Source: an uncultured Bacteroidota bacterium (GTDB lineage: Bacteria > Bacteroidota > Ignavibacteria > UBA10030 > UBA8401). Taken from it: a stretch of 64,000 nt of DNA. A program made the position numbers and the translations under genes. A model generated the notes under the pieces. It did no database searches, had not been told where the DNA came from, and was given only the letters and a program-made list of their open reading frames with translations. The stretch lies in NCBI GenBank assembly GCA_963772165.1, contig CAVYWA010000014.1:247363-311362 (forward strand), written 5' to 3'. Positions 19,188 to 50,410 of this stretch are shown piece after piece (within the stretch, counting starts at the first letter, position 1; every line of letters begins with the position of its first letter).

Positions 19188-19242
19188 AGAGAGATTTCAC
19201 ACGGGGTCGTAGCTCAGTTTGGTTAGAGCGCCTGCCTGTCAC
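19188..19242 (+). repeat. attL-like 55-bp direct repeat: 15 bp upstream plus the first 40 nt of tRNA-Asp
   Basis: Identical to 50356-50410 (agagagatttcacacggggtcgtagctcagtttggttagagcgcctgcctgtcac). The sequence diverges immediately afterwards. Confidence 0.85.
19203..19242 (+). pseudogene. 5' fragment of tRNA-Asp(GTC), a displaced partial copy
   Basis: It matches tRNA positions 1-40 of the intact copy at 50371. It ends in the anticodon loop and has no 3' half. Confidence 0.8.
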
Positions 19243-19373
19243 TCGACGGGTTTGGTAATCAAAAACATCGAATCTAACTCCCGTTCGATACTTTCAGTTT
19301 CGCCACCTAACAAATCACCTAACACTTTTTCCCCTGCAAGCATCCCTCAACGCAAACCCGCGAGGAGGGAATC

Positions 19374-20375
19374 ATGGCAAGTCTCATCAAAACAAAATCC
19401 GGCATCTACTACATCGTCTTCTCCCACAAGTCAAAACACATCTGGCGATCCTTACGCACGAAGGACAAGAGAGAAGCCTACCGAAAATTTCTTGAAGAAC
19501 AAAACTCTCAACCAGGAAAGAAAGTACTGACCCTTTTTCAAGCAGAAGAAGAATACCTTGCCTTCGTCAAAACCAATCTTTCACCAAAGACATACTTATC
19601 CTATACAATTACTTTTAAAAACTTGAAGAAACATTTTGGCAATCGACCGATAGAAGAAATTACAGCAAGAGACATGGAATTTTACAAATCAAATCGCGCA
19701 GCGACAGTCTCAGCAAACACAGTCAATCACGATCTTCGTATGGTGAGAGCATTTTTCAACAAGCTTGTGGACTGGAAGATCTTGCATGAAAGCCCTTGTG
19801 CAAAAGTGAAGGATATCAGGGTTGTCGACGAAACGAGGGCTTTTTTAAGCACAGAGGAACTTGATAAGCTTTTGAAATACCTCAAAGGGTCTTTTTTGCA
19901 TGATATAGTTCTTTTCGCTGCAATGACAGGTATGAGGAGAGGGGAGATCATCAACCTCTCATGGAACGATGTCGATATAGAACGAAAAGTTATTATAGTT
20001 CGAAGCTCGGGCTCGTATCAAACAAAGGCAGGGAAGATCAGAACAATCCCCATGAACTCGACAGTATTGCAATTATTAGCAGGAAGGCCGCACACCTCAC
20101 AATATGTCTTTACCGGAAAAAAAGGGGATAGGTTGAATGGGAATTTTCTGCGAGGGAGGCTTAAAGCTGCAACAAGGGCGCTGGGCTTAGATTCAAGGCT
20201 CCATTTTCACTCTTTGAGGCATACATTTGCAAGCCTCTTGGTCCAAAGAGGAATATCGCTCTATCACGTTCAGAAGCTCTTAGGACACTCCTCGCCAAGA
20301 GTGACCGAAATCTACGCTCATCTTGGGACCTCAGAACTGAGTGGATCAGTCGAAAAACTAGGCAATAGCGGGTAA
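19374..20375 (+). CDS. Tyrosine-type site-specific integrase
   Basis: The 333 aa ORF has a C-terminal catalytic region reading ..MTGMRRGE..HSLRHTFASLLVQRG..LLGHSSPRVTEIYAHL (R..HxxR..Y). Confidence 0.85.
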   Translation: MASLIKTKSGIYYIVFSHKSKHIWRSLRTKDKREAYRKFLEEQNSQPGKKVLTLFQAEEEYLAFVKTNLSPKTYLSYTITFKNLKKHFGNRPIEEITARDMEFYKSNRAATVSANTVNHDLRMVRAFFNKLVDWKILHESPCAKVKDIRVVDETRAFLSTEELDKLLKYLKGSFLHDIVLFAAMTGMRRGEIINLSWNDVDIERKVIIVRSSGSYQTKAGKIRTIPMNSTVLQLLAGRPHTSQYVFTGKKGDRLNGNFLRGRLKAATRALGLDSRLHFHSLRHTFASLLVQRGISLYHVQKLLGHSSPRVTEIYAHLGTSELSGSVEKLGNSG

Positions 20376-20497
20376 TTAGCAACTTTAAAGGCCTAAATCA
20401 TCAAGGTGAAACGATATGTAACATGAAATAACATATTGTTTGACGTTCATACATATTTTGCTATATTTGTTACATATCATTTTTTCAATCTTATCGC

Positions 20498-21581
20498 ATG
20501 CATATGAAATTCGATCCAGATCAGCCGTTTGATTTGCCCATTCTTCCACCGGCCATGAACTTCCGGCACGAGGAATTCTTTGATATTCTAATGAAGACGA
20601 GAACCGAACTGGGGGAGCTAAACGGATATTCGTATACACTGCCCAATCCAATATTGCTACTTTCTCCCACCGGTACTGAAGGAGTCAGTTGCAAGCTCGA
20701 ATATCGAGAATATCAACACCACGATGGAAGAGGCTTTACAGGCTCAACTTTTCCCAGATGCAGAGCAGAAGAAGCCTGATAAAGAAGTGCTCCGGTACAG
20801 AGACGCCATCCAATGGGGGTTTGAAAACCTCAAAAAAATCCCAATTTCAACTCGGTTGATTCTTGGGATTGAAAGAAAACTCATGCCGGATAGAACAGAA
20901 GGATACAGGAGAACTCAGAATAAAATTACAAACCTCTCAACAGGGAAAGTCCTTTACACACCGCCAAGTGCGAACGAACTTCCGAGATTGTTAGGCAACT
21001 GGGAGAACTTTGTCAACGCTGAAGACGACGGTATTGACCCGCTTGTTAAATGCGCGATCGCTCATTACCAATTTGAGGCAATTCACCCATTTGGCGATGG
21101 CAACGGCCGCACCGGGAGAATCCTTATGGTGTTGTTCCTCATACAGCGGAAGCTTCTCTCGTTGCCGATTCTCTACGTCAGCGAATACATCAACAAAAAT
21201 CGGAATGAGTACTACCGGCTTTTGCACGAAGTGAGCACGGAAGGAAAATGGCATGAATGGATTCTCTTCATGCTAAAAGGATACCACCTGCAAGCAAAAG
21301 AGACAAAGGGAGTTATTCTCCGTATTACAGAGATGCTTGAAGAGATGAAGGAGCTTCTCCGCACGAAGCACAGAAAAATCTATTCATCGGACTTAGCGGA
21401 GGCGTTGTTTGCATATCCGATTGTAACGCCTGTCAACCTTGGTAAGAGGCTGGACGTGAACTACAGAACGGCAAGCCGTTACCTTGTGGAGCTGGAAAAG
21501 GGGAAGGTCCTTACCGAAAGCTTCGTAGGGAAGTATCATCTCTATTCAAACAAGCGATTGTTGAAAATGCTCAGATCATAA
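20498..21581 (+). pseudogene. Fic/DOC family protein, frameshifted near 20668
   Basis: The N-terminal Fic segment (..FDLPILPP..ELNGYSYTLPNPILLLSP) is in one frame. The continuation (PVLKESVASSNIENINTTMEEAL...HPFGDGNGRTGR) is in another frame. The shift lies at tctcccaccggta. Confidence 0.7.
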
Positions 21582-22156
21582 AGTGTGATCTTGGTTGAAC
21601 GCATGACGTTGCGATATATTGGAATTACACAGACTTCTCTAATTGTTGTATAACTATGGCACATTAAATTATATCTGCCATATTTATACAAATAAATCTT
21701 CTTACGAAAAGAACCGCAAAATAAGGGTATATCCTTATTTATGTATTGCAATAATAAGGGAATACCCTTGCTTTAGGCGCAACAGAAAGGCATGAAGCTC
21801 AAGTGTCGAAAGATGCACATACCCAATAACGAGAGACATCCGCTTCTTTAAGATCTCAGCAGGGCAAGGCAAACCTGTCCGAAACAACAATGCCCGGTCA
21901 TCCAAACGATAGCCGGGCATTTCCATTTCTAAAACCTCAGCAGAGGTTAATCGATGAGCTAGTCTCTCTTTCGTCGTCAATTGACAATAGATGAGTAGAA
22001 AAATGCAAGACCGGTGTTCTGGATTCGCTCATCCGCCAAGTTGCAAGAAAACAGACTCTCCGCATATTAAAAATGCAATCAACGAATCAAAAAGCACTCC
22101 GAAGATAATTCAGCCTCGGAAGTGCGGAGAAAAAATAGCAGGAGGGCCATAGCGTT

Positions 22157-22651
22157 ATGAAAACACGAAACGGAATGTACAAGTTTTCGGCTTTATACAG
22201 CTCGGATTCAATCAAAGAAGTAGTTTTGAGGTTCAAGGATGCGGAAGATCTACCACCGGAAGTAATGCAGGCGAGAAAGAGGATAGGAAGCCCTGAAGAT
22301 GTGTTTACGACGTTTAAGCCCCTCTTCGACGGGCTTACAACCGAAAGATTTGTTGTATTCTCTCTTACAGCCGATCTCAAAATAAATGCATACAAAGCGA
22401 TTTCAGAGGGAATCTTAAATACATCACTCGTTCATCCCCGTGAAGTTTTTATCTTCGCTATAGCTTGCGCAAGTGCCTGTATAATACTAGCGCATAATCA
22501 CCCTTCAGGAAACACCGAACCATCGCAGGAAGACATAGCTATAACAAAGCAACTTGTAGAAGTCAGTAAAGTCATGGGTATCAAAATTCAAGACCACATA
22601 ATCTTTGCAGGTGACACATTTACGTCGATGTCCGAAAGGGGAATTCTTTAG
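22157..22651 (+). CDS. RadC-like JAB/MPN domain protein
   Basis: The 164 aa ORF carries the ..ILAHNHPSGNTEPSQEDIAITKQL.. JAMM motif. Confidence 0.85.
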   Translation: MKTRNGMYKFSALYSSDSIKEVVLRFKDAEDLPPEVMQARKRIGSPEDVFTTFKPLFDGLTTERFVVFSLTADLKINAYKAISEGILNTSLVHPREVFIFAIACASACIILAHNHPSGNTEPSQEDIAITKQLVEVSKVMGIKIQDHIIFAGDTFTSMSERGIL

Positions 22652-23832: not shown

Positions 23833-25206
23833 GTGCGACCTATGGAACAATATAGCAAAGATCGGTCAAATATTGTTGCAAGACTTGAACGCCTTCCACT
23901 TTCTTGGGTACATAGGAGGTTGCTTTTGGTTCATGGATTCGGTTGGCTGTTTGATGCAATGGATGTCGGCATTATAACATTTATAATAGTCGTTTTAGCA
24001 AGAGATTGGAACTTGCCAACCAATCAACTTGGCCTAATCGCGAGTGCAAGTATGGCCGGCATGTTTATTGGCGGAATAGCTTCTGGAATTGTGGCTGACT
24101 ATTGGGGACGGAAAAAAGTATTCCAAATTACTTTGCTGATATTTGCGATTGCAACCTTGTTGTGTGCCACTGCCCAAAATGTCAGTTCAATGATTATTTT
24201 TAGATTTTTCGTGGGCATTGGGCTGGGCGGTGAGTTACCAGTTGTCTCATCTCTTCTCAGTGAATTCATGCCGAGTAAGTATCGTGGTCGATATATCGTT
24301 CTTTTGGAAAGTTTTTGGGCATATGGTTGGCTCATTGCTGCGATCGTTGCATTTCTTGTTATTCCAGCATATGGTTGGCGGAGTGCTTTTATCATCGGTG
24401 CGATCCCTGCTTTCTATGTCTGGATTGTTCGACGAAAATTACCCGAATCTCCGCGTTGGCTGTATAGTAAAGAACGCTATTCGGAGGCGGAAAATGTAAT
24501 TGTCGCAATGGAAAAAGAAACGGAAAAACGCAAAAAAATATCTTTACCAATTATTGAAAGAGGTGTTGAACCAGTCCACAAATACTCATCGAAGTTTCCT
24601 TTTACTGAGCTTTGGAATAAGACTCACCGAAAGAGCACAATAATGCTCTGGATATTATGGTTCGGAATATCCTTCGGCTACTATGGAATTTTTGTTTGGC
24701 TTCCAACATTGCTTGTTAAGGAAGGTTATTCGATGGTCAACTCCTTTTACTATATTATTTGGATTACTCTTGCTCAAATCCCCGGATATTTTAGTGCATC
24801 GTACCTCGTAGAACGTGCAGGACGAAAGCCGGTCATCACAGTCTATTTGTTACTGTCTGCGATCTCCGCCTACTTCTTCGGCGAGGCATCAACCAAGGAA
24901 GGGATACTGATCTGCGCAACACTAATGTCCTTCTTTAACTTGGGTGCTTGGGGAGCTGTTTATGCCTACACACCGGAGCAATATCCTACACGAGCTCGAG
25001 CAACAGGTGCTGGTGCCGCCGCTTCTTTTGGTCGAATCGGAGGATTTTTCGCGCCGATTGTAGTGGGCGTTCTCCTTCCATTAGTTGGCCGTGATGGCGT
25101 ATTCACTTTGAACGCGGCGTTGCTATGTATAGGTGCAGTGGCGGTTACTACTCTGGGGGTAGAAACTAAAGATAAATCTCTTGAAGAAGCATCGCAGGAG
25201 AGTTAA
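23833..25206 (+). CDS. MFS transporter (sugar-porter/NiaP-like niacin transporter family)
   Basis: The 457 aa ORF has 12 predicted TM segments and the motifs GRKKV and PESPRWL. Confidence 0.8.
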   Translation: MRPMEQYSKDRSNIVARLERLPLSWVHRRLLLVHGFGWLFDAMDVGIITFIIVVLARDWNLPTNQLGLIASASMAGMFIGGIASGIVADYWGRKKVFQITLLIFAIATLLCATAQNVSSMIIFRFFVGIGLGGELPVVSSLLSEFMPSKYRGRYIVLLESFWAYGWLIAAIVAFLVIPAYGWRSAFIIGAIPAFYVWIVRRKLPESPRWLYSKERYSEAENVIVAMEKETEKRKKISLPIIERGVEPVHKYSSKFPFTELWNKTHRKSTIMLWILWFGISFGYYGIFVWLPTLLVKEGYSMVNSFYYIIWITLAQIPGYFSASYLVERAGRKPVITVYLLLSAISAYFFGEASTKEGILICATLMSFFNLGAWGAVYAYTPEQYPTRARATGAGAAASFGRIGGFFAPIVVGVLLPLVGRDGVFTLNAALLCIGAVAVTTLGVETKDKSLEEASQES

Positions 25207-25210
25207 AAAC

Positions 25211-26485
25211 ATGAAAGAAAAACAGCGGTCTTACGGTACAGTGAAAAAGAGTTACCCAGTAACTACTATCCCTAAATTTCATTGGTTGGGGGTGGAGTTC
25301 ACTGCCCATTCCAAGCCGATGATAGTTTTATTTTGGTTTATTACAATTTCCCTCACTCTTTTCTTTGTTGGGAGCTTTGCAACAAAGGTATACTCATCTA
25401 TTCGAACACCGCCATTACCGCCTCCTTCCATATGTGTTCTCTTACCTGATCCTGCCAGCTTTTCTGACGGTGCATTTTATCAGGATGGCGTCGTCCAAAA
25501 AAGAGGGTTCACCAAAGCCGAAGATGATGCGGATAAGCTGTCCAACCGTCTCCGTGTTCAATATATATATATGAGACGAGAAGTCTCAGCTGACACACTT
25601 CTCAATCAAATGAAAATGGAGTATGCCCAATCCGGCGCAACTTATTTTGTAATGACCATGAGTAGTAAGATCGAAGCAATTCGTTCTCATTTCATAAACT
25701 GGCATAACGATTGTGTCCAAATGGGTGTGCGAGAGCCAATATTGATTGCGACAGTAGCAAGTGCTCCTGATTTGGCTGACGGATCTGGAGGAATACTGCG
25801 TTGGTATGTTAGATCGCAGGAGGAAAGTGCTGCACTCGCTGAATACCTGAGTTGGAAGGAAGGTATAATGAACGCGGGTGTATTTTTCATTACTCGCCAC
25901 GTTGGGCAAACGGATGACGAATATGGCAAAGGAGGAATGGAGACATTTCGAGAGCGATTCATCAATGGTCTTGGCGGTAAAATGGTCGATCCTTATTGTA
26001 CTACTGCTGGAACAGCTAAATCCAATGTTTCAGAGTTTCTCGCAAAAGTCAAGAGAGCTCGACTGAATTCAAACAATACCGGAGTGTTCATTGTTGGTTA
26101 TGGAGATATGGTCAGAGAAGTTTTAAATGAACTTTTAAAGCAAGGATTTACAGGCCCGATAGCTTGTGCTTCAACGCTGACTGAACCGGATTGGCAGCCT
26201 AAAGAACGATCTGCGGACAATAGGATAGTGACGGTTTTGCCAAGATTGGCAAACCCACAAACAAGACTTGAAGTAGACGACCGAAATGTTGTATTCTTTT
26301 TCGCGAAGGAAGCATTATTTCGCGTGTTGGAGCTAACAGCGACCGATGCTAATTCCAAAACCTTCGTGGAACGCTGGAAAACTGAATCAAAGAAATATCT
26401 TAATCAAGAATTTTTGGCGAATGGCGATTGTGCTGTGCAATTAGACGTAGTCGGTTCGGAGGAATGGAGATGGATCGAGCACTAA
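25211..26485 (+). CDS. Membrane-anchored hypothetical protein with a periplasmic-binding-protein-like domain
   Basis: The ATG at 25211 follows the upstream stop. A single N-terminal TM helix is followed by an alpha/beta region loosely resembling type-1 PBP folds. The 3' end overlaps the pncA-like gene. Confidence 0.35.
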   Translation: MKEKQRSYGTVKKSYPVTTIPKFHWLGVEFTAHSKPMIVLFWFITISLTLFFVGSFATKVYSSIRTPPLPPPSICVLLPDPASFSDGAFYQDGVVQKRGFTKAEDDADKLSNRLRVQYIYMRREVSADTLLNQMKMEYAQSGATYFVMTMSSKIEAIRSHFINWHNDCVQMGVREPILIATVASAPDLADGSGGILRWYVRSQEESAALAEYLSWKEGIMNAGVFFITRHVGQTDDEYGKGGMETFRERFINGLGGKMVDPYCTTAGTAKSNVSEFLAKVKRARLNSNNTGVFIVGYGDMVREVLNELLKQGFTGPIACASTLTEPDWQPKERSADNRIVTVLPRLANPQTRLEVDDRNVVFFFAKEALFRVLELTATDANSKTFVERWKTESKKYLNQEFLANGDCAVQLDVVGSEEWRWIEH

Positions 26486-27048
26486 TTATCATAGACGTTC
26501 AGAGAGACTTCTGTAATGGTGGAGTTCTGGCCGCGAGAGATTCTCTTAGTTTAATTAAGCCGCTTAATGAATGCATCGCATGGTGTATTGCGCATGACGT
26601 TCTGTGCGTTTTTACACGAGACTGGCATCCCCCGGATCATTGCTCCTTTATTCCTCAGGGCGGTCCTTGGCCACCCCACTGCATCCAAGGAACACCAGGC
26701 GCAGAGTTTGCAGAAGGTCTAATAGTCCCAGACTCTGCTTTGGTCATTGACATAGAAAAGGATTCGAGCAAATCGAATATGAGTTATTCGGCTTTTGAAA
26801 ACACCAATTTATCTGATGATTTGCATCAATTGCAAGTTAGTCAAATTGCTGCTGTGGGGATTGCAACAGATTATTGTGTTCGAGCCACTGTTTTGGATGC
26901 TCTAAACATTAATCTGAGAGTCCAAGTGTTAATCGATCTTATTAGGCCAATTGACGCAAAACCTGGCGACTCCAGTAAAGCAATTGCAGAAATGCGAAGT
27001 GAGGGTGCAATTCTTTCTACAAGTAGCGATTGGATGAAATCTTCTTAG
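26464..27048 (+). CDS. pncA: Nicotinamidase/pyrazinamidase (isochorismatase-family cysteine hydrolase)
   Basis: The N-terminus reads ALIIIDVQRDFCNGG. The sequence carries ..TRDWHPPDHCSF.. and ..IATDYCVRATVLDA.., giving the catalytic D-K-C arrangement typical of PncA. Confidence 0.7.
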   Translation: MEMDRALIIIDVQRDFCNGGVLAARDSLSLIKPLNECIAWCIAHDVLCVFTRDWHPPDHCSFIPQGGPWPPHCIQGTPGAEFAEGLIVPDSALVIDIEKDSSKSNMSYSAFENTNLSDDLHQLQVSQIAAVGIATDYCVRATVLDALNINLRVQVLIDLIRPIDAKPGDSSKAIAEMRSEGAILSTSSDWMKSS

Positions 27049-35371: not shown

Positions 35372-35372
35372 C

Positions 35373-37347: not shown

Positions 37348-37376
37348 TATCATGTAGCATCATTTTGAGAATAGTC

Positions 37377-38069: not shown

Positions 38070-38081
38070 AGCGAGGACCAT

Positions 38082-38104
38082 TTACGAACTTTGGTGCGAA
38101 TGTT
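38082..38104 (+). repeat. Right copy of the 23-bp imperfect direct repeat flanking the cassette
   Basis: See 34862-34884. It lies 13 bp after the glycosylase-like stop. Confidence 0.7.
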
Positions 38105-38253
38105 GCCGATGAGCTGTGTGGTGAACATGAGATATAAGATTTTATTGCGTTGGAGAAGTTGTTAACTTTGCCGGCGTTTTTTTGTATATTCAGGATGGAT
38201 TCTATCTAGACAACGTGATGAGTCTTCCCTATTAATAGTTTACGCATTTATCC

Positions 38254-39400: not shown

Positions 39401-39498
39401 GTTGCTAACGGACCAAGACAAAGGTGTCGAGGATTTGGAACTTTTCAAGCGATTCATTGCGAGAGTGAAAAGAGAGGAAGAGAAACGATGGCTCAGCT

Positions 39499-40215: not shown

Positions 40216-40601
40216 TCGACCTTCCTCATCCTGCCCGTTTGCTATTAGCGGCCAAAGAGTTGGCTGCCCTGACCACTCTTAGACCAGGACCACCATCAGC
40301 CAAGGCGATTCTTTTAAAATGTGCGAAACTGACTAAGGATAAGTCAAGCGGATCATCTTCGCTGAAGCATGCCATAAATTCGATTCCGCAGGAATGGCTT
40401 TCTGCGACTCTCAATCCGAATAGCCAAGTTCTAGAACTTGCTAACACCTCTGATGTTTGCAGGACACAGACGAATGGAAAGCGGAAGCAAAACGGCATGG
40501 TCGAGCAGCTTTTGAAAAAGAATAGGGATACCTACAGACAAGCAGATATCAGATGCAGATCTGGCATTCCAGTATTATCAAGAATGTCTGCTCGAAGCTG
40601 A
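40176..40601 (+). CDS. Hypothetical protein fragment (continuation of the preceding reading frame chain)
   Basis: The 141 aa ORF has a GTG start and overlaps the end of 39499-40215 by 40 nt in a different frame. Confidence 0.3.
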   Translation: MVSRGIRTLGESLIDLPHPARLLLAAKELAALTTLRPGPPSAKAILLKCAKLTKDKSSGSSSLKHAINSIPQEWLSATLNPNSQVLELANTSDVCRTQTNGKRKQNGMVEQLLKKNRDTYRQADIRCRSGIPVLSRMSARS

Positions 40602-40692
40602 ATTCAAAACATTGACAGAGGAGTAAAATTGGGAGACGAAGAAATCGTGAATAAAGATCAACCAACAGGTACTTGGAGAAATTAGAGAATCG

Positions 40693-42333
40693 ATGTCGGT
40701 CGCTTCAAAGGGAAAGGGAGAGGCAGATCAGGGAGAAATGCGAGAGCTGTTTTCAGGTGAAGACTTGAAGGCTGCAGACGTTGAGCGGATAATGGATTCA
40801 TCAGGAACCAGGTTGATCGTTCTTGCTGGCGCTGTGGATGCTGGCAAAACAACATTATTGCTGACGATAGTTCATCAATTCTACAAGGGCGGATTTGGGG
40901 ACTTCAACTTTGCGGGGTCAAGAACACTACTTGCGTTTGATAGAAGAGCTTTTGATTCAAATATTATATCAGGAAGAACTGTACCGACCACTCAACATAC
41001 AATTTCGAGTCTTGATAACATCAAGTTTCTGCATCTGGCAGTTAGAAATAAAGATATGAGTGGGCCAATAACCAACTTGCTATTTACAGATATCTCTGGG
41101 GAGAATTTTCGGGATGCGAGCGACTCTGTTGAGGAATGCCGCAAACTTTGGGTTCTCCGTCGAGCCGACAGATTGGTTCTTTTATTCGACGGGAACAAGA
41201 TAGCCGATCCGGCTAACGCCAGAAAGCGAAAGTAGAGGGAATGATGTTGCTGAGAAGATGCGTCGAAGCGGAAATGATTGGCGGACAATCCAAAATCGAT
41301 ATCATCTTCACAAAAAAGGATATCTTAGAAACCTCTCCAGATAAAGGAAGAGCACTTCCGTTTGTGGATGAGATAAAGGCCGAAATTCTGAGTAAGTTCA
41401 TGGGCTCTTTGGGAACTATTAGTTTCTTCTCTGTCGCGGCTCGTCCAACGATGAAGCCAATACTTGGCGAGACTTATGGCTTCAAGGAATTCCTACCAGC
41501 TTGGATTGATGAGAGTCCATTTATTCGGACGATAAAAAGAGACGTTCCGAACACGTTATCCGAAAATTCCCGAATGTTTTTATCTTCGAAGCTTGAGGAG
41601 GAATATGTGATAACTGATGTAGCAATTCATCGGTGCAGTCAACTTCTGGTCGGATTACCAGACACAGGGAAGTCGACCTTCCTTGCTGCTTTGTATCACC
41701 AGGTTGAAGGCGGTGACATCAAAGGTTCTTTGGTATTGGAGAGGTTAGGGTCTGATATCGAGTATCTAAACAGAATCAGGGAAGATTGGTTGAAATGCGA
41801 AAAGATTAGTAGAGCTACTGGTGTCAAAAGCAAAAAAGTACAATGCTTCTACGGGATCCCAACACATCATTACTTTCAGGGTCACGATTCCTGATTTACT
41901 TGGTGAGATTTTTGACCATCAATTCGAGGAGAGAAGATGGACTGATGAATTCGAAGAAATGGTTATTTATGTAATGGTCTCGTGGTTTTTATTCATCCCG
42001 ATAAAGTCACTCCGGTGAGATCTATTATGGAGGCAAACGTTGTAGTGGAAATGGTTGAAGAAAAGGACTCTCTAATGCCCCCCTTGTAACATGGACGGCA
42101 AAGGGTCCGCGACTCAGATAAAGTTGGTAGATATTCTCCAATGCATACTCGATGGTACGGCTGAGGATAAAGTTACTCCCGTTGCGATTGTAATATCGGC
42201 GTGGGATCGGGTGCTTTCATTACCTAAAGAGTGCGGCGGAAATCCCAAAAGATTCGGTCAAAAAGAGACTGCCTTTGTTGAACCAGTTCTTGGATTGAAT
42301 TACGAGAGGTTATTACAAGATATTCGGAATTAG
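40693..42333 (+). pseudogene. Double-GTPase-like (two tandem P-loop GTPase domains) gene with three or more frameshifts
   Basis: Domain 1 reads GAVDAGKTT (G1), DISGE (G3) and, after the first frame break, ..KIDIIFTKKDIL (G4). Domain 2 reads GLPDTGKST (G1), ..PDLLGE.. (G3) and ..VAIVISAWD... Frame changes occur at ~41217-41235, ~41821-41894 and 42018-42091. Confidence 0.5.
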
Positions 42334-42497
42334 TGTCAAGGAGGCGATTATACAAAGGACAAAGCAAATATTGGGTGAGGCATCGAAAAGGGTTCTTGTT
42401 TATTCAGATACCGGAGCATATGACAAGGATATTTCCGCTCCTATAATAAACAATGGGCAATGTCACTTGTTCCTTTAGAAGAACGTGGTAAATATTA

Positions 42498-43095
42498 TTG
42501 ATGGTACTACATCAAACATTACACGGTTATTGGGACTGTCATAGATTGCTTCAGTCATCATTGGATCTGGACTCTTCAGAAAAAAGAACTTTGTTGTCGA
42601 TGTCAGACATGTCAGGTCCTAGAATGGTCAATGGCTTCGAGGAAGATCTCCTCAGGGTACCCGATTCCTTAATTGAGAGTACTTTGCATTTGCCAAACCA
42701 TGGTACGCTAACGAAATGCCTCGTCCAGGTTGTGTTTGGACTCACTGGGTTATCGACCGAGAAGACGAATCTTGCCATACTTGTTAGAAATACTATTATC
42801 GCTTTTCACTCGTCCGGGTGCCGTTTCTTCCATATTATCGTATGGTCGAGATGTTGTTATTGATGAAAGCCTGACAGTAAATAGAAATGTCAAACTCGTA
42901 AGACTTGACCTTGGAAGGATCAGTCTGAATGCGAGGAACAAAACAGCCTTGTTTGCCTTACCCTACAAGCCTATATTTTTGATTTCTTCTAATGCAAGAG
43001 ATTTCGAATATGTTCCGCTAGGGATCTGGAAAGGAATCTGGCCAGGATTAAGAGTCTGTATATGTGTTTTTTGCAGTTGCTTTTTACATTCTTAA
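42498..43095 (+). pseudogene. Hypothetical gene split across two frames near 42820
   Basis: The ORFs 42498-42863 and 42730-43095 overlap, and a +/-1 shift would join them. Confidence 0.3.
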
Positions 43096-43391
43096 ACAGA
43101 GTCATTGACAATACACCTTTGGATCTTCAGATAATTCCTCGCTCAAGCCTATCTACAATAAGACGAAGCCAATAATGCTCTGTTCCTCGACGAGGAATCA
43201 AAAGGTATCGACGAACTAGGCGATGTGCGTGAAATGGCGGAACTTCAGAAATGATTACAAAAACCTAAGTTTTTCAATTTCGCCACTCAATATACCTCAG
43301 ATATGTCAGGCGGAAGAGAATTAATGATGCTCTAAGCTCGATCTTTAAACTCATAGAAGACACCAAAAATGACACTAAATCAATAAGTGAG

Positions 43392-44600
43392 TTGACCCGA
43401 GGTATAGCACTTGCGTTTCCAAGTCCAACTGAGGCAGCGAGATTGAAGAAATCCCTATATACACCATTCTCGGACACTTTATTGGATCCTATGTTGATAG
43501 ACAAGAAAGAAGCCGAATTGCTATTGGAACTGATCACAACGCCATTTATCGGTTGTATGAACACACAAGAGTTATCTATTACATATAGGACCAGGTCCTT
43601 TTGGTTGCAATCAAGGCCTGAAGCAAAGAGACTTCTTCTGGATACTCTGGAGCTTGACCACAATTCGCTGTTTGATGAGTTTCTTTCAGCTACAGCGTCA
43701 GTTCTATCACCTGAAGATATTTTAGAAATAAGTCATTCGAAACCCAAACTCTTACCTTTCTTTATTCTCAGCAATCCCAAGTTGGCAACCTCGCCTCAGT
43801 TATGGAAAACTTCAGTAGATGTGCAACGTGAGATTTTTGATGTCCTAAAAGAGTCCAAGGACAGCAGTTCTATTGATTGGAATGCAGTGGTGACAGCTAT
43901 TTTTGCTGCAGGTGCGGAACATCTGAGTGTGGTCATTGTAGAGAGAATTGGTTTGCTTCCATTTCTAGGTATTCTCGACAAAATTAAATTTTCTCCAGCG
44001 GATTTTTCACAACAATGGAAGAGGGCCACTGCTTCGAAAGATTCTCTTGTATGTAAATGGCTTGAGATCAGCAATTCTCCTTCTCAGAATATCCTTACTC
44101 TGTTTGCTCTGTCAAGTGAGCCACGTTCATGTATTTTTGACGCGTCAAACCTCGCTCCTTGGGTACGTTTAGCAGATTCCTTGGAATCCTTCAATTCAAG
44201 CATCAGAATCAGAATAGCGGCATTCTTGTTGGCATTGGGCCTCTACAATCAGGATCAAGAAACATATAAACTCGTAACACGCAGCTTCCAAATTGTCCAT
44301 GATGCAGCTGAGAAGGATAACCTCCCTTACGACTCATGGCGCCTTTTGGAAGGGTTGGTTCCTGAGTTGTCTTGGACAAAGAACTGGGACAAGTGCGAAC
44401 GCCTTATACGCGGGGTGGTGGAACGTTACTCGAACTGGAAGTGGCCCATATCTTCGTTTGTTCAAGTTACAAATCGAGAGGATACTCTTAAACGAATTCT
44501 CAAACGGTGTATGAAGAACCCCGATGGAGTCCAATTTGTGCAGCTACTCAAAAAAGAACAGTCCGGTGGACTTAAGCGAGTTATCAAAGAGGTAGAATAA
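43392..44600 (+). CDS. Hypothetical alpha-helical protein
   Basis: The 402 aa ORF has no recognisable motif. It lies between the decayed GTPase region and hsdM. Confidence 0.4.
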   Translation: MTRGIALAFPSPTEAARLKKSLYTPFSDTLLDPMLIDKKEAELLLELITTPFIGCMNTQELSITYRTRSFWLQSRPEAKRLLLDTLELDHNSLFDEFLSATASVLSPEDILEISHSKPKLLPFFILSNPKLATSPQLWKTSVDVQREIFDVLKESKDSSSIDWNAVVTAIFAAGAEHLSVVIVERIGLLPFLGILDKIKFSPADFSQQWKRATASKDSLVCKWLEISNSPSQNILTLFALSSEPRSCIFDASNLAPWVRLADSLESFNSSIRIRIAAFLLALGLYNQDQETYKLVTRSFQIVHDAAEKDNLPYDSWRLLEGLVPELSWTKNWDKCERLIRGVVERYSNWKWPISSFVQVTNREDTLKRILKRCMKNPDGVQFVQLLKKEQSGGLKRVIKEVE

Positions 44601-44785
44601 GCATCAGTCGGTTCATCACTTTCCACATTTTTTCCTCCGCAGCACTCTACTAGAAATCCAATTTTGAGAGAGTAATCTGCTTTCGCGTTAGGTAGGTGGA
44701 AGGTGGCGAACATAGTTTAACATGTAGCATCCCGACCCGAAGGTTCCTCAGTGGGGGAACGTTACTCATAACATCGTCAATACGA

Positions 44786-46286
44786 ATGCTCACCGACCCA
44801 CAACTTAAATCTAAAGTCGACGCTCTCTGGGACCGCTTCTGGTCCGGCGGCATCGCCAATCCTATTACTGCCATCGAGCAGATGTCCTATCTCATATTTC
44901 TCAAGCGGCTGGAGGATATGGACAATGCCCGTGCTGCGGGCGCGAAGAGAAAGAACGAATTATATCGTTCTATTTTCCACGGGAGCAAAGACTGTCGGTG
45001 GTCTGTACTGGAGTCAATTGCCTGGCGATCAGATGCTAAAGCATGTACGTGACAAGGTCTTCGACTTCCTGCGCGAACTTGGGAGCAACACAAGCTCGTT
45101 TACCCAGCACATGCAGGATGCCGTCTTCATCATCCCGAAGGCATCGCTGCTGCAGGAGGGGGTGAAGATCATCGACGATATGCACATTGCCGAGCAAAAC
45201 ATCGATGTGCAGGGAGATCTCTACGAATATCTGCTAATGCAGCTCACCACTGCGGGGAAGAACGGACAGTTCCGGACGCCAAGGCACATCATCCGGATGA
45301 TGGTGAAGCTGGTAAACCCGAAAGTGGGCGACCGTATCTGCGACCCGGCTGCGGGCACGGGCGGGTTTCTAGTGAACGCGTACGAGCACATACTCGAATC
45401 GAACACATCCCCCGACGTTCTTGAATACGACGACGAAGGGAAACCGCATCACTTAATCGGCGACAAGATCGCGGATAAGAAGCTGCTGAAGTTTCTGAAG
45501 AGCCAGGCGTTGACAGGTTACGACTTCGACGCGACGATGACGCGCATCGGCGCAATGAATCTGATGCTGCACGGGATCGACAATCCGAATTTTCGGTATA
45601 CAGATACACTCTCAAAGTCGTTTACCGAGAAGGGACAATACGACGTAATCCTCGCCAACCCGCCATTCAAGGGATCGATCGACAAGAGCGACATCAACGA
45701 ACGCTTCTCAACGAAGACGACGAAAACGGAATTGCTTTTTATTGAATTGATGTACGACCTCTTGGTGACCGGCGGACGTTGCGGCGTGATCGTGCCCGAC
45801 GGTGTATTGTTCGGGACGAGCAACGCACACATTGCAACGCGGCGGATTCTTGCTGACAAGTGCAAGCTCGAAGGCGTTGTCTCGATGCCATCTGGAGTAT
45901 TCAAGCCCTACGCCGGAGTCTCGACTGCGGTGCTCGTGTTCCAGAAAGGCGGCACCACGGACAATGTCTGGTTTTATGACATGAAGGCGGATGGTTTCTC
46001 GCTGGATGATAGGCGACAGAAGATAGCCGAGAACGATATTCCCGACATCGTTAAGCATTGGGGAGATCGAGGCAAATCGAAAATCGGCAATCGTAAATCG
46101 AAAATGTTTGCCGTTCCCGCCGACGAAATCCGTTCCAACAAATACGACCTATCCATTTCACGATACAAGCTAATCGAGCACAAGAAAATTGAATACGAGA
46201 AGCCGGAGGCGACGATGAAGAAGTTACTGGAGTTGGAGAGAAAAATCGGAAACGATATTGAATCAATTCAAAGAATGCTTAAATGA
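44786..46286 (+). pseudogene. hsdM: Type I R-M methyltransferase subunit HsdM, frameshifted near 44990-45020
   Basis: The HsdM_N segment (MLTDPQLKSKVDALWDRFWSGGIANPITAIEQMSYLIFLKRLED..RWS) is in one frame. The methylase core (..DPAAGTGGFL..ANPPFKG..) is in another frame (44925-46286). Confidence 0.7.
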
Positions 46287-47413
46287 CCCAGCGCAAGTTG
46301 CAACTTGGGAGCCTTGTATCAATCGTAAAAGGTAAAAAACACGATGAGGTTTCTAACATTCCGTCGCTTGGGTCCAAGAGGTATATTCAAATCGATGATC
46401 TCAGGAACAATTCCAATTTGAAGTATACGACCAATTCTGGAGTGGAAGTCGGCATTGACGACGTGATTATTGCCTGGGATGGTGCAAATGCTGGTACAAT
46501 CGGATTTGGATTGAATGGATATATTGGAAGTACTCTTGCTCGACTAAGGATTATTGATGCTCAAGTTTATTCAAAATTCTTGGGATGGTGCCTGCGCGGT
46601 CAATCAGTTTCAATAAGGGAGAAATGTACCGGCGCAACAATTCCTCATGTCAACAAGTCTTTTCTCCAATCTATCGATGTACGCCTTCCCCCTCTTCCCA
46701 TCCAAAAACAAATCGCCGAAATATTAGAGAAAGCCGATACAACTCGTGAGATGCGTCTGGAGGCTAATGAACTCACCCAACAGTTTTTACATTCGGCCTT
46801 TTTGGAGATGTTCGGCGATGGGACGCACAAGCGTGTAAAGTTGAGAGATGTTTGTCGAATCATTACGGATGGCACGCACATCACTCCAAAGTATCTAAAT
46901 CAGGGAGTACCTTTTGTCTCGGTGAAGGATGTAAGGAGTAAGAAAATTGATTTCAATAATGTAAAGTATATCTCTCGTGATGAGCATCTTTTCATTACAA
47001 AAAGGTGTAGACCAGAAAAGGGGGATATCCTTTATACAAAAGTTGGTGCGACATTTGGTAACGCTGTACTGGTTGATCTAGATACTGAATTTAGTATCTT
47101 CGTGAGTCTTGCATTACTGAAACCTAAGTTTGATATAATTGAGCCACACTTTTTGCATTACATGATGAACACTGATTTTGTGAAGAGCCAGGCACGGCAA
47201 CGGATAAAAGGAATTGCTGTTCCTGACTTACATTTGATCGAGATCAAAGACTTTGATATCTACCTGCCTGAGATGGCTGAACAGCGAAAATTTCTCGGCT
47301 TAGTCGAGAAGGTTGAATTGCTCCGTGTTAAACAGCGAGAATCGGAGAAAGAGCTAAACAATCTCTTCAACAGCCTTATGCAGAGAGCGTTTCGAGGGGA
47401 GTTGGTGGAGTGA
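46283..47413 (+). CDS. hsdS: Type I R-M specificity subunit HsdS
   Basis: The 376 aa ORF has a start overlapping the hsdM stop (ATGA). It has two TRD-like halves and the conserved central and C-terminal coiled regions. Confidence 0.7.
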   Translation: MTQRKLQLGSLVSIVKGKKHDEVSNIPSLGSKRYIQIDDLRNNSNLKYTTNSGVEVGIDDVIIAWDGANAGTIGFGLNGYIGSTLARLRIIDAQVYSKFLGWCLRGQSVSIREKCTGATIPHVNKSFLQSIDVRLPPLPIQKQIAEILEKADTTREMRLEANELTQQFLHSAFLEMFGDGTHKRVKLRDVCRIITDGTHITPKYLNQGVPFVSVKDVRSKKIDFNNVKYISRDEHLFITKRCRPEKGDILYTKVGATFGNAVLVDLDTEFSIFVSLALLKPKFDIIEPHFLHYMMNTDFVKSQARQRIKGIAVPDLHLIEIKDFDIYLPEMAEQRKFLGLVEKVELLRVKQRESEKELNNLFNSLMQRAFRGELVE

Positions 47414-47420
47414 ACCAACG

Positions 47421-48777: not shown

Positions 48778-48906
48778 CCTATTGACATTCACGAACGAAA
48801 TATTTATTTTTGCGAGTGAAGTTGAGCATATGCTGCCACACTACCACTACTCTACTACTACGACAGGCGCTAACCACTAACAGAGACTTTAACTACGTCT
48901 AATAAG

Positions 48907-48946
48907 AATGCTCAATTCTCAATTTAAGAATTGAGCATTTTTGTTT
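48907..48946 (+). terminator. Rho-independent terminator
   Basis: A perfect 12-bp stem (aatgctcaattc / gaattgagcatt) with a 9-nt loop is followed by tttgttt. Confidence 0.6.
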
Positions 48947-49040
48947 CTGTTAGTAAGGCCATTGTTAAGGTCTCAGGACTGAATCAGAGACTTCGACAAT
49001 GTCTCTAAACCACACTTGATGTAATAGTAGGGAAGAAACA

Positions 49041-50234
49041 ATGTATCCTTCAGAAATGCTTCCGGAAATGATCTTTGATGATCCCAGCCTCGCGCTTATC
49101 TATACTTTTTGTCTTAGTCGGATAGGAAAACCATTCGAAAGAACTCGCATCGACGGGCATATAGTCTCATTGCGGACTAATGAAACCGCTATCCGCAAAA
49201 GTGACTTCCATAGACTTCCTATAGAGGAGGACAGAATCAATGAAATTCTGTCAGAGTTACAGAATCTTCGGCTTATGGAAGTTTCACACCGTGAATCATT
49301 TGTTCTCACCTACTTTCCTAACCTTTCGCTCCCACCAGAACCAAGGAGTTCACTGTCCGAGAACGGCCCGGGTCAACTTCCCCTAATTTCATTTAACGAC
49401 TTTTCACAGCGATACCTAGCTCATTTAGATAGCAATAACTATGCTCCGAAGACAATAGAAAACGCAGAAAGAGTATGTAAGATGTTTGGCAAATGGAAGG
49501 GGACATCTATGTTGAGCCAGTTGCATTCCTCTGATCTGGAGAATTATAAGGAAGAAAGAGGATCGGTCGTGAAACCTGTGACGGTCAATATTGATTGTCG
49601 AACGCTCAAAGCTATGTTGGAACAGGCGATCCGCTGGGGCTATCTCAAAGAGAATCCCTTTAGAATAGTTCTTGAGATCCGGATTGACAGTAAATTGCCA
49701 CGGTTTCTTACAAGAGACGAATTCAAAGCAATAATTTCTCTTATTGATGATGATATGCTAATAAATGTTTGTAAATTTGGCGTCCTGACTGGTGCCCGAA
49801 GAGGAGAAATTTTGAATTTGCAGTTGAAAGACATCGACTTTGAGAATCACTTGATAACAATACAATCATCAGAAAACTATCGAGTGAAACATGGAAAAAG
49901 TAGAATCATACCATTGCCGAAAGCTGTTATGCCAATTTTGAAATCAATAGAACCTTCCGATATATTTGTTTTTGACATCGAGGGCAATTGGAAGGCCAAA
50001 GAAGAGTTTGTCACGAAAGGATTCAAGAAATTCTCGAGGGCTGCCGGGCTCGACGAGGAAGTTAAGTTTCACACGCTTCGAGCTACCGCTGCCTCATGGT
50101 GGGCACAAGCGGGGGCAACCGCTCTTCAGATCAAAGAACTACTAGGTCATAAGTACGTAAAAACAACTGAGCATTATACTCGAATTCCACCGACCGAGTT
50201 GCGCAATGTTGTGGACTCTCTTGCACCATTCTGA
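49041..50234 (+). CDS. Tyrosine-type site-specific integrase (second copy, attR-proximal)
   Basis: The 397 aa ORF reads ..TGARRGEIL..HTLRATAASWWAQAG..LLGHKYVKTTEHYTRI. It ends 120 bp before the right direct repeat. Confidence 0.85.
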   Translation: MYPSEMLPEMIFDDPSLALIYTFCLSRIGKPFERTRIDGHIVSLRTNETAIRKSDFHRLPIEEDRINEILSELQNLRLMEVSHRESFVLTYFPNLSLPPEPRSSLSENGPGQLPLISFNDFSQRYLAHLDSNNYAPKTIENAERVCKMFGKWKGTSMLSQLHSSDLENYKEERGSVVKPVTVNIDCRTLKAMLEQAIRWGYLKENPFRIVLEIRIDSKLPRFLTRDEFKAIISLIDDDMLINVCKFGVLTGARRGEILNLQLKDIDFENHLITIQSSENYRVKHGKSRIIPLPKAVMPILKSIEPSDIFVFDIEGNWKAKEEFVTKGFKKFSRAAGLDEEVKFHTLRATAASWWAQAGATALQIKELLGHKYVKTTEHYTRIPPTELRNVVDSLAPF

Positions 50235-50355
50235 AAATGTGCTTGCGATGAGTAAACAATTTTCGTATATTTTCAACAGTCAACGACACCTAACAGTCCA
50301 CCTAACAGTTTTGAGTGGATATTACAGGGTAGATAAGGTGAAAATTGGCGAAAAC

Positions 50356-50410
50356 AGAGAGATTTCACACGGGGTCGTAGCTCAGTTTGGTTAGAGCGCC
50401 TGCCTGTCAC
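50356..50410 (+). repeat. attR-like 55-bp direct repeat
   Basis: Identical to 19188-19242. Confidence 0.85.

Follow-up and report, generated by a model that had tools for sequence, protein, structure and literature searches.

The window, the whole 64-kb stretch of DNA analysed, carries a 31,168-bp island inserted at a tRNA-Asp(GTC) gene, and the insertion is polymorphic between strains. It is probably a single element, integrated by a tyrosine recombinase, whose attP contains the 5' part of the tRNA and whose likely cognate enzyme is the left-hand integrase, Int1. All features described below lie on the + strand.

Boundaries and empty site

ARAGORN found one tRNA in the window, tRNA-Asp(GTC) at 50371-50446. 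The longest repeat of the window (family D1 of the repeat finder) is a 55-bp direct repeat at 19188-19242 and 50356-50410, and comparison of the end sequences gave no mismatch between the copies, as the initial annotation had stated. The repeat is composed of 15 bp of upstream sequence and nt 1-40 of tRNA-Asp, the latter at 19203-19242 in the left copy. This 40-nt 5' part is present as 2 copies in the window with 3 mismatches tolerated, where shuffles expect 0. The anticodon loop has 7 nt (CTGTCAC, gene positions 34-40), and the repeat stops after the last of them, at the loop/stem boundary on the 3' edge of the loop and not inside the loop as originally annotated. Because the copies are exact, the crossover cannot be placed inside the 55 bp, though we infer that it lies in the anticodon loop. 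The bracketed segment, which by convention begins with the first base specific to the element and includes the whole right repeat (19243-50410), has a low GC content, 0.38-0.45 over most of its length compared with about 0.49 in the flanks. The GC content within the island is mosaic.

A separate assembly of the same species (L103, ENA ERZ25039540 contig_34087) contains one intact tRNA-Asp and lacks the island. It matches window positions 12003-19242 with 99.72% identity and 50337-64000 with 99.58% identity, and the two matching blocks meet at the intact gene, giving exactly the uninterrupted locus that had been sought in a related genome. The empty-site junction predicted from the window differed from this contig by 1 mismatch in 600 nt. 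The exact empty site in a contig of the same species shows that the 31,168 bp entered by precise, site-specific insertion. The empty site also shows that the left repeat (attL core region) is native and contains the displaced host 5' half, while the right repeat (attR core region) is derived from the element. [quoted passage not shown] In a third assembly (L105) the island is a stand-alone contig of 30,970 bp, a length which fits the whole island, and its single retrieved end begins at window position 19241, 2 nt inside the core. This contig could represent an excised form or, equally possibly, an assembly-graph bubble. In a close relative of the host (L101), the gene block of the left flank is followed by a different island that contains an Int1-like gene, the tRNA core being unconfirmed there.

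The absence of a third att copy, and hence of the mark of a tandem pair, was upheld by a systematic search. [quoted passage not shown]

Attachment-site arms and the two integrases

The 9-bp sequence CACCTAACA has 4 matches in the 64 kb against 0.23 expected, every one of them at the island ends. They form two tandem pairs, one per arm, with the same orientation and the same 12-bp spacing: 19304-19312 and 19316-19324 in the P' arm (19304-19324), and 50287-50295 and 50299-50307 in the P arm (50287-50307). These are candidate arm-type integrase binding sites. The P' repeats are kept upstream of Int1 homologues (L001, L003, L007, L019) and the P repeats after Int2-like genes (L007-L009, L012-L014, L016, L017). 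Relatives with a single integrase likewise bear tandem repeats on each arm, with sequences of their own, such as TTCTTAGTA twice per side in L052, and two-sided arm repeats are therefore the signature of a single element. Alignment of P arms also revealed a conserved block, GGTGAAAATTGGCGAAAAC, at 50337-50355. The sequence TGGCGAAA is present in the native upstream region as well, at about 19166.

The promoter-like sites described here are consensus matches only and are treated as candidate promoters. The native tRNA-Asp site, TTGCAA-17-TATATT (19102-19130), has the same sequence upstream of the tRNA in L103 and after integration faces the displaced 5' half and, beyond it, Int1. An element-borne site, TTGCGA-17-TATATT (50243-50271), lies 9 bp past the Int2 stop codon and faces the restored tRNA-Asp; its TTG and TAT.TT columns are invariant across 7 aligned P arms. 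A further site, TTGACA-17-TATTTT (48782-48810), lies upstream of Int2. No promoter-like or terminator-like site was found between the tRNA 5' half and Int1.

Two different tyrosine integrases do sit at opposite ends of the island, as first annotated. Int1 (19374-20375, 333 aa; PF00589, E 3.7e-36) and Int2 (49041-50234, 397 aa, with a winged-helix N-terminal domain; PF00589, E 9.9e-25) share 32% identity over the core-binding and catalytic domains, have unrelated N-termini and both contain the catalytic R, HxxR, H and Y residues. The arm-binding assignment of the Int1 N-terminus is to DUF6538, a Pfam match just below threshold (26.9 bits against a cut-off of 27).

A neighbour-joining tree of the integrases, the phylogeny proposed earlier, recovered the Int1/tRNA-Asp clade as monophyletic. 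Int2 belongs to a rarer clade, and each clade is linked to its own end of the element across the family. For Int1, a truncated core CCTGCCTGTCAC followed by non-tRNA sequence precedes the gene in 14 of the 15 loci whose upstream sequence extends for at least 200 bp, at 118-149 bp from the integrase start. The 5'-type arrangement is frequent in the Int1 superfamily, where complete islands of this type with a single integrase exist (L035, L052, L083, L065) and where CTAAC-core arm repeats are widespread beside genes having no Int2 partner (L036, L040, L044, L065). Judged from sequence, Int1 is most likely the cognate integrase. A two-tier RNA hairpin is predicted at 19335-19379, in which the Int1 Shine-Dalgarno sequence (GGAGGG) pairs with an upstream CCCTC and the AUG is paired too. 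Such a fold is predicted for at least nine loci, among them the window and eight relatives (L001, L003, L007, L019, L020, L024, L099, L102; z -2.0 to -4.2) and is retained when a longer leader is folded, suggesting that Int1 may be under translational control.

Wherever the sequence downstream of an Int2-clade gene could be read, it contained, on the same strand, a tRNA gene or, at a contig end, the start of one; intact tRNAs lie about 150-230 bp downstream. The target is tRNA-Asp in the window, L007-L014 and L016, and tRNA-Pro in L017. The two clades are documented together in only three elements, all diverged, namely the present island, L007 and L027. L007 is an 8.3-kb miniature with the order 5' half, arm repeats, Int1-like gene (58%), cargo, Int2-like gene (50%), arm repeats and tRNA-Asp, with no internal att copy, and in L027 the two integrase genes are adjacent. 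Islands with several integrases are common. Int2, whose catalytic residues are intact, is a lineage-specific second recombinase belonging to the same element; it may act as a partner, control directionality or provide an alternative integrase.

Integration model and its rivals

In the proposed model, site-specific recombination by a tyrosine recombinase at the anticodon loop of tRNA-Asp(GTC) would bring in the island from an attP holding nt 1-40 of the tRNA and the 15 bp upstream rather than the usual 3' part. The inferred circle would have the order Int2, promoter, two CACCTAACA, tRNA 5' half (core), two CACCTAACA and Int1. Integration would strand the host promoter and the host 5' half, together with the native upstream DNA, at the left end. 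At the right end, the element 5' half and the host 3' half would make up the working gene, probably read from the promoter of the P arm. In the integrated state the truncated tRNA, with the host tRNA promoter ahead of it, lies about 130 bp before Int1, which has no promoter-like site of its own and whose ribosome-binding site and start codon would be hidden in the conserved predicted hairpin. Two integrases without a third att are best explained by one element whose recombinase genes flank its attP.

That no insertion took place, the repeat being an assembly duplication or the gene order being ancestral with the island lost elsewhere by homologous deletion, has a practically negligible probability. 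Misassembly can create exact short repeats, and a site that looks empty would also result from deletion between the 55-bp repeats. However, independent assemblies show the site with the island, the site without it and the island by itself, and the truncated tRNA core with its integrase, in the same att architecture, recurs in many unrelated flanking contexts among metagenome contigs; the arm repeats, the presence of an integrase at each end and the change in GC content all suit site-specific recombination. A low probability is given to the fusion of two independent 5'-type elements in tandem at tRNA-Asp, with Int1 on the left, Int2 on the right and the internal att later deleted. Tandem arrays are common at tRNA sites and hybrids form within them (PMC7192596), tandems are known in the Int1 superfamily (L079, L015, L065), and in L023 a relic P arm is followed by a new element. 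The mosaic GC would fit such a fusion, as would the Int1-superfamily integrases which act alone in other islands and the three loci (L013, L014, L016) where the 10 kb preceding the Int2-like gene contain no Int1-like gene. Against this, the internal att or arm relic is absent, and both outer arms have an identical 9-bp repeat in the same spacing and orientation, which is expected of the arms of one attP but not of two enzymes only 32% identical with unrelated N-termini. Given that the two-clade layout recurs in L007 (50-58% protein identity, no internal att) and L027, any fusion would have to be ancient, its product acting today as one element.

Which enzyme acts is likewise a matter of inference. 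That Int2 performs integration and excision, with Int1 an accessory or a remnant, or that the two form an obligate heteromeric pair, is given a low but appreciable probability. At every readable locus, Int2-clade genes are tightly associated with the P arm and with the 5' end of the tRNA, L017 has identical CACCTAACA repeats even though it targets tRNA-Pro, and Int2 keeps all its catalytic residues, its own promoter-like site and an additional DNA-binding winged-helix domain. Nevertheless, CTAAC-core arm repeats beside Int1-superfamily genes lacking Int2, the complete one-integrase islands and the constant spacing between the tRNA-Asp 5' half and Int1-clade genes all argue for Int1 as the acting enzyme.

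Known systems and cargo

The arrangement was initially annotated as the mirror image of the usual one. It is indeed of the uncommon 5' type, but this is a known minority type already catalogued in Islander, and upstream integration has been noted for islands in Klebsiella and for archaeal pTN3. Islander lists 159 islands with a 5' tDNA fragment and 3,760 with a 3' fragment, 3,919 in total (Hudson, Lau & Williams 2015, PMC4383910). As here, its 5'-fragment islands are limited by an intact tDNA and an end fragment in the same orientation, the 5' fragment being upstream, and its islands carry tyrosine integrase genes within a 2-200 kb range which includes the present size. For the 5' type that paper gives counts only and describes neither P-arm promoter conservation, nor an int gene behind the truncated tRNA, nor a recombinase pair flanking attP.

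The boundary at a 7-nt loop with a symmetric anticodon stem, the classic geometry of an overlap region with core sites, is shared with the anticodon-loop att class of Williams 2002, as summarised in PMC8371274 and bioRxiv 10.1101/2020.11.02.365908. In the classic case the identical stretch covers the gene from the loop as far as its 3' (CCA) end, and 'with very few exceptions' the original promoter is retained by the recombinant tRNA (PMC8371274), whereas in the present island the stretch extends from the loop to the 5' end and past the gene start, and the promoter is probably that of the element. Integrases of the pTN3/TKV4 type of Thermococcales (Cossu et al. 2017, PMC5495485; PMC8371274) also use a tRNA 5' half as attB, and the restored tRNA loses its original promoter and is transcribed from DNA of the element. 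They are, however, archaeal SSV-type enzymes with attP inside int, which is split on integration, while both int genes are intact here, the att is intergenic and the host is bacterial (Bacteroidota/Ignavibacteria type). The Klebsiella arg2A-VII islands are bacterial and lie upstream of the target tDNA, unlike every other island of that survey (bioRxiv 10.1101/2020.11.02.365908), but differ in their D-loop sublocation, integrase clade and Enterobacteria hosts, with no second integrase described. Repeated arm-type sites either side of the core recall the lambda/P4 arm-binding type of tyrosine recombinase, and in P4-like elements int likewise adjoins attP with its 5' end facing the site. The present island differs in its simple tandem 9-mers at 12-bp spacing, in the winged-helix second recombinase across attP and in that no excisionase or RDF was recognised in the island.

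The cargo is mostly defence and comprises a type I restriction-modification system, Fic and RadC. The HsdR subunit is encoded by two ORFs (32094-34127 and 34146-34853, together 32094-34853) and HsdM and HsdS by 44925-46286 and 46283-47413 (44925-47413). Between hsdR and hsdMS, a cluster of nucleoside-deoxyribosyltransferase-like (NDT), QueC, OGG-like and metallophosphoesterase genes (35352-39060) is embedded in the locus as a candidate defence module. Fragmented and decayed double-GTPase/GAP1 genes lie at 40693-43095. Because the cargo is partly decayed, with the GTPase genes fragmented, hsdR split and the Fic gene frameshifted, the island may have lost part of its function. The Fic/SoFic-like gene (20498-21581), split here, encodes 358 aa in relatives, and the RadC-like JAB protein (22157-22651) is 99% identical in L099; the Int1-Fic(-RadC) module is kept in L001-3 and L099/100. 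A further block at 23833-27048 encodes an MFS transporter (23833-25206), a 434-aa protein and an isochorismatase-family protein (26428-27048).

The insertion in tRNA-Asp

ARAGORN found one tRNA gene in the whole window, tRNA-Asp(GTC), on the + strand at 50371–50446. Reading of both ends together with a repeat finder gave exact 55-bp direct repeats at 19188–19242 and 50356–50410, as the initial annotation had described, each consisting of 15 bp of upstream sequence and nt 1–40 of tRNA-Asp. The partial copy is indeed the displaced 5′ half of the tRNA (nt 1–40, 19203–19242, + strand), lying 31 kb upstream of the intact gene at the right end, also on the + strand. With three mismatches allowed, nt 1–40 occur exactly twice in the window and not at all in shuffled sequences. 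The GC content falls from about 0.49 outside to 0.38–0.45 across most of the interval. One detail of the annotation had to be corrected, namely that the block of identity ends inside the anticodon loop. The sequence gives a D loop of 10 nt, which places the anticodon loop CTGTCAC at gene positions 34–40, and the identity extends as far as the final base of that loop, gene nt 40, where loop and stem meet. Past nt 40 the left copy reads TCGACGG and the right copy GCAGGAA. The anticodon stem of attB, the empty host site, is symmetric (CCTGC/GCAGG).

A second assembly was reached through the DUF3078 protein of the right flank (53171–54031). This 402-kb contig, L103 (ENA ERZ25039540 contig_34087), matches window 12003–19242 over its positions 1–7240 (99.72%) and window 50337–64000 over its positions 7166–20808 (99.58%). 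The two blocks share only the repeat, and an intact tRNA-Asp lies at 7201–7276. The predicted 600-nt empty-site junction differs from L103 at one base. An uninterrupted tRNA-Asp locus in a related genome, the comparison proposed by the initial annotation, is thus provided by L103, an exact empty site with flanks 99.6–99.7% identical; the 31,168-bp interval is a real, precise insertion. Comparison with L103 also shows that the left copy keeps the native upstream sequence (...ctaaatat followed by agagag...) and that the sequence upstream of the right copy (...gaaaac followed by agagag...) is element DNA. Three GGTTACC repeats at 50517–50548, just 3′ of the tRNA, belong to the host, since the empty site has them as well (L103, about 7350–7380).

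An island-only contig, L105 (ERZ25039480 contig_129480), contains both recombinase genes, Int1 and Int2, and its retrieved end begins 2 nt into the core, at window 19241. At 30,970 bp the contig fits the core-to-core island in length once the indel rate of the contig is allowed for, and it could be a presence/absence bubble or a circle. Near-identical Int1 and/or Int2 were found on ENA contigs of 30,970, 31,126 and 452,438 bp (P0363/P0368, P0369, P0364/P0370), and the two that are about island-sized could likewise be presence/absence bubbles or excised circles. The polymorphism is observed directly, with occupied, empty and island-only states all within one species. L101 comes from a close host relative, its left-flank proteins being mostly 78–98% identical to those of the window. 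The left-flank gene block is the same and the island behind it another one, encoding an Int1-like protein (78%), the small subunit of a terminase and an HTH protein; the tRNA core was not detected in this error-prone contig and the intervening gene differs from that of the window. The empty-site, island-only and L101 assemblies exclude both objections that the initial annotation had raised against its own reading, the same gene order without repeats and an assembly duplication.

The 5′-fragment arrangement is known but rare, and the island's membership of the 5′-fragment class of Islander is very well supported, since it has every feature by which that class is recognised. The intact tDNA and its cognate end fragment are on one replicon in the same orientation, with the 5′ fragment upstream of the intact gene. 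A tyrosine integrase lies inside (two PF00589 genes), the length of 31,168 bp is within 2–200 kb, and the occurrence is sporadic, the site in L103 being uninterrupted. The mirror-image reading of the initial annotation is supported. Such islands were 159 of 3,919, about 4%, in the Islander collection (PMC4383910). Sites in the 5′ half like that of pTN3 are ‘seldomly encountered in bacteria’ (PMC8371274; PMC5495485), in bacteria a recombinant tRNA retains its own promoter ‘with very few exceptions’ (PMC8371274), and in a Klebsiella survey one integrase clade integrates upstream of its tRNA (bioRxiv 10.1101/2020.11.02.365908). The island resembles the anticodon-loop class of Williams 2002, as later papers describe it, in an identity block bounded by the 7-nt loop and in a symmetric attB stem, but the island's block runs to the 5′ end plus 15 bp whereas that of the class runs to the 3′ end with the promoter kept. 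The island is not of the pTN3/SSV type, in which attP lies in int and the int gene is split on integration, because its int ORFs are intact and its att core is intergenic. The arrangement itself will be no great surprise to a specialist. The island is an unusually complete natural example of this minority mirror-image integration into tRNA genes in bacteria, and what is worth pursuing is its conserved element promoter, the interspersed 5′ and 3′ configurations of its relatives and the recurring winged-helix second recombinase.

Arm repeats, promoter-like sites and the Int1 leader

The 9-bp repeat CACCTAACA is present exactly four times in 64 kb (0.23 expected), always on the + strand and always at the island ends. 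One pair, at 19304 and 19316, is 12 bp apart and 62–82 bp past the core in the P′ arm, between the displaced 5′ half and Int1. The other pair, at 50287 and 50299, is also 12 bp apart and lies about 100–120 bp ahead of the loop in the P arm, between Int2 and the restored tRNA. Judged by sequence, this layout matches that of arm-type sites in one attP, on its P and P′ arms, making the repeats candidate sites, and the two-arm pattern is kept in relatives. In these repeats on both arms, and in the R-K-HxxR-H/W-Y residues kept by its enzymes, the island is like lambda-type arm-binding systems. It is unlike them in that no excisionase or recombination directionality factor (RDF) was recognised, the small ORFs scanned against Pfam and PHROGs giving no Xis/HTH_17-type match; a novel RDF in the island is possible.

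A sigma-70-like site that resembles a promoter for the native tRNA is found at 19102–19130 (+, TTGCAA-17-TATATT). A very similar promoter-like site in element DNA, at 50243–50271 (+, TTGCGA-17-TATATT), starts 9 bp past the Int2 stop and points toward the restored tRNA. The stretch from the displaced 5′ half to Int1 has no promoter-like or terminator-like site. Seven P arms of diverged elements were aligned, and the TTG, the TAT.TT, the two CTAACA motifs and, close to the tRNA, a GAA..G..A.A block are invariant among them. A search pattern with fixed spacing of promoter and arm repeats gave no match because the promoter-to-repeat spacing varies.

A relic P arm without an island body was observed at 1690–1865 of locus L023, directly 3′ of a host aldo-keto reductase gene. 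This relic contains the promoter, a single CACCTAACA and the conserved P-arm block GGTGAAAATTGGCGAAAAC, is almost identical to window 50228–50370, and now makes up the sequence upstream of a tRNA-Asp 5′ half, after which comes another Int1-like element. Evidently, element-derived promoters can become fixed at a host tRNA locus. The native upstream region of the window has TGGCGAAA and the 15 bp of the repeat in common with the arm of the element; it too may be such a relic, of greater age.

Folding predicts a two-tier hairpin that pairs both the Shine-Dalgarno sequence (GGAGGG) and the AUG of Int1. An equivalent hairpin with varying flanking bases is predicted for the window and for L001, L003, L007, L019, L020, L024, L099 and L102 (z −2.0 to −4.2). 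RNAalifold gave no consensus structure for the leader because the MAFFT alignment was out of register in the loop; the hairpin comes from per-sequence folding and so any claim of covariation is qualitative. When the whole attL leader was folded, truncated tRNA and P′ arm included, only the Shine-Dalgarno hairpin emerged (z −1.6).

These features suggest how the element may integrate. In the circular form attP would be arranged as Int2, promoter, P-arm repeats, tRNA nt 1–40, P′-arm repeats, Int1. Int1 would bind both the arm repeats and, at the anticodon stem-loop, the core, and would exchange strands within the 7-nt loop; the repeat, being exact, is compatible with a crossover at any point in it. 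The site would then be of the classic anticodon-loop type, but with the element-borne homology running 5′-ward. Integration would leave the host promoter and the 5′ half reading into Int1, the translation of which would be throttled by the leader hairpin, and the hybrid tRNA-Asp would then be driven by the element promoter. Promoter, arm repeats and core can be told apart within the att site.

The two recombinases and their relatives

The initial annotation was right that two different tyrosine integrases sit at opposite ends: Int1 (19374–20375) and Int2 (49041–50234) are both PF00589 proteins encoded on the + strand. The catalytic RRGE, HxLRxT, LGH and Tyr are kept in both and are invariant in their alignments A1 and A2. 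Residues 1–49 of Int1 match DUF6538 with 26.9 bits, just below the Pfam cut-off of 27, and the N-terminus of Int2 is a winged helix. Any likeness of the two to Xer proteins is below the family cut-offs. Heteromeric systems such as XerC/XerD and TnpA/TnpB of Tn554 need two tyrosine recombinases, which act on the two halves of one core site; what is seen of Int1 and Int2 in this respect is their co-occurrence.

Homologues of Int1 number thousands in metagenome bins of Bacteroidota/Ignavibacteria type. Contexts were taken from close relatives and from 80 loci of a metagenome scan with the Int1 alignment, and were read by tblastn, ARAGORN and blastn with a tRNA library. In a neighbour-joining tree Int1 and relatives at least 43% identical to it form one clade. 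Fifteen Int1-clade loci, from many different host contexts, have at least 200 bp of upstream sequence, and in 14 of them the truncated core CCTGCCTGTCAC, followed by non-tRNA sequence, is found 118–149 bp ahead of the start of int; the clade is associated with this end. In L001 at 9776–9852 (the same as L002 335–411) an insertion of ∼77 bp, GC-rich and partly palindromic, is present in the D loop of the displaced tRNA-Asp 5′ half; it may be a miniature element that inserted into this dead fragment.

Across the wider Int1 superfamily the break is mostly at the anticodon loop, fragments ending at about nt 28–41 and a few reaching nt 46–56. The 5′ fragment directly upstream of int derives from Asp, Val, Lys, Arg, Pro, Ser and Cys tRNAs. 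The conventional order of intact tRNA, int and 3′ fragment was found in L073, L079 and L015, and many further loci have an intact tRNA immediately 5′ of int. The 5′ and 3′ configurations are interspersed in the tree, indicating that the configuration has switched repeatedly. Complete small islands of the 5′ type, with a single integrase and the intact tRNA at the far end, are L035 (Val), L052 (Arg), L083 (Arg) and L065 (Ser). At least L035, L052 and L065 have tandem repeats of their own on both arms, TTCTTAGTA occurring twice on each side in L052. These single-integrase islands indicate that an Int1-type enzyme with two-sided arm repeats is a sufficient, self-contained module and that the 5′ type is ordinary for the family. 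A whole integrase superfamily of uncultured Bacteroidota/Ignavibacteria type has both fragment configurations side by side, so that it becomes testable what decides which tRNA half an element carries and how an essential tRNA stays expressed after a promoter swap. Software for finding islands will mis-map such elements if it takes a 3′ fragment, or a single integrase per island, for granted.

Close homologues of Int2 are rare. Wherever the downstream sequence of an Int2-clade gene could be read, it led to a tRNA gene on the same strand or, at a contig end, to its first 21–53 nt, so this clade too is observed at one end. The intact tRNA is ∼150–230 bp downstream, tRNA-Asp in L007–L014 and L016 and tRNA-Pro in L017, and a conserved promoter and a tandem CTAACA-type repeat lie between. 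The 8.7-kb contig L007 has the architecture of the window in miniature: 5′ half, two CACCTAACA, an Int1-like gene (58%), HsdM fragments with an IS, an Int2-like gene (50%), two CACCTAACA and tRNA-Asp. The two clades occur together in the window, in L007 and in L027, the last having a different layout: at L027 10001–12078 an Int1-clade gene (+) and an Int2-clade gene (−, 358 aa) are adjacent and convergent right after a tRNA-Asp 5′ half.

Two recombinase genes could mark a tandem pair of elements. The initial annotation saw no third att copy, and this holds: a 13-nt core with up to two mismatches is confined to the two ends, and the systematic search it had proposed for internal att-like repeats, a blastn at word size 7 in which the island interior was compared with the tRNA and the two arms, gave chance-level matches as the only candidates for att or arm relics. 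L007 likewise has no internal att copy. A single element with two recombinase genes is favoured over a recent tandem because the outer-arm repeats are identical, because there is no internal relic, because the layout recurs at 50–58% protein identity and because the N-terminal domains of Int1 and Int2 are unrelated. An ancient fusion of two elements is a possible origin of the Int1/Int2 island. Several integrase genes per element are frequent in the TIGER study (PMC7192596), so the pair in itself is unremarkable.

A stronger version of the single-element reading is that Int1 and Int2 form an obligate, co-evolving pair around attP in which integration rewires transcription and Int2 sets directionality without a classical excisionase; we consider this rather unlikely. 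Under it the pair may bracket attP as Int2, promoter and P arm, tRNA 5′ half, P′ arm, Int1. Int1 may capture the strong tRNA promoter of the host, with its expression restrained by the Shine-Dalgarno/AUG hairpin, tRNA expression may pass to the promoter of the element, and the winged helix of Int2 may read a separate conserved P-arm site and so set directionality. Small islands with Int1 only, such as L004, were considered as a disproof of pairing. This was rejected since the right junction of L004 lacks the P arm and the first 13 tRNA nt, and islands with such damaged junctions look like deletion derivatives. If the obligate pair were true, it would be an integration module of two recombinases without a classical excisionase, and host tRNA promoters could be permanently replaced, compare the L023 relic.

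Cargo and flanking DNA

The island is best described as a defence island, partly decayed. A Fic and RadC module adjoining Int1 is conserved in L001–L003 and L099/L100. In the window the Fic gene (20498–21581) is split by a frameshift into a Fic_N-like ORF of 93 aa and an ORF of 285 aa; in L003 and L099 it is intact (358 aa, 94% identical). A type I restriction-modification system extends over 32094–47413, with hsdR as two ORFs separated by ∼10 kb from hsdM/hsdS. Within this gap are genes for an NDT-like protein, QueC, an OGG-like protein and a metallophosphoesterase, followed by fragmented Double-GTPase/GAP1 genes. The first four resemble the accessory genes of type IV CBASS, but no cyclase was recognised. 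Further cargo comprises an MFS transporter and an isochorismatase-family protein. The unannotated ORFs were searched for excisionase, phage, conjugation and known defence functions with nothing useful found (Pfam at E ≤ 1, PHROGs, NCBIfam), and PADLOC returned from them only QueC, a weak OGG match and a metallophosphoesterase effector match.

A prophage was rejected as the identity of the island, no Pfam families for phage structure, packaging or lysis being present in the 30 island ORFs and no PHROG matches among the 10 unannotated island sequences scanned. An ICE or mobilisable element was rejected on the lack of relaxase, coupling protein and type IV secretion matches to Pfam in the same 30 ORFs; several of these are unannotated and a novel mobilisation function among them is possible. 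Excised or phage-borne forms were sought in IMG/VR with the CACCTAACANNNCACCTAACA pattern, giving 48 loci of which none had an integrase homologue or a tRNA, and a scan of IMG/VR with the Int2 alignment gave nothing above 32% identity.

By its T9SS and TonB domain content and by the names of homologues, the host is an organism of Bacteroidota/Ignavibacteria type. In the host flank at 55292–59706 there is a bacterial microcompartment locus, unrelated to the island, with an RnfC/Nuo51-like protein, a BMC shell protein, a class II aldolase and an FGGY kinase. In other loci an 88-aa GIY-YIG ORF lies just 3′ of the intact tRNA-Asp (L004 9290–9830, also L005 and L021, and L006 100–1180). The 3′ end of this ORF enters a copy of the 3′ part of the tRNA with an altered T arm, and beyond this copy the 60 bp found after the tRNA are repeated; in L006 the unit is present twice in tandem. 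The GIY-YIG unit looks like a separate, tiny tRNA-associated mobile unit.
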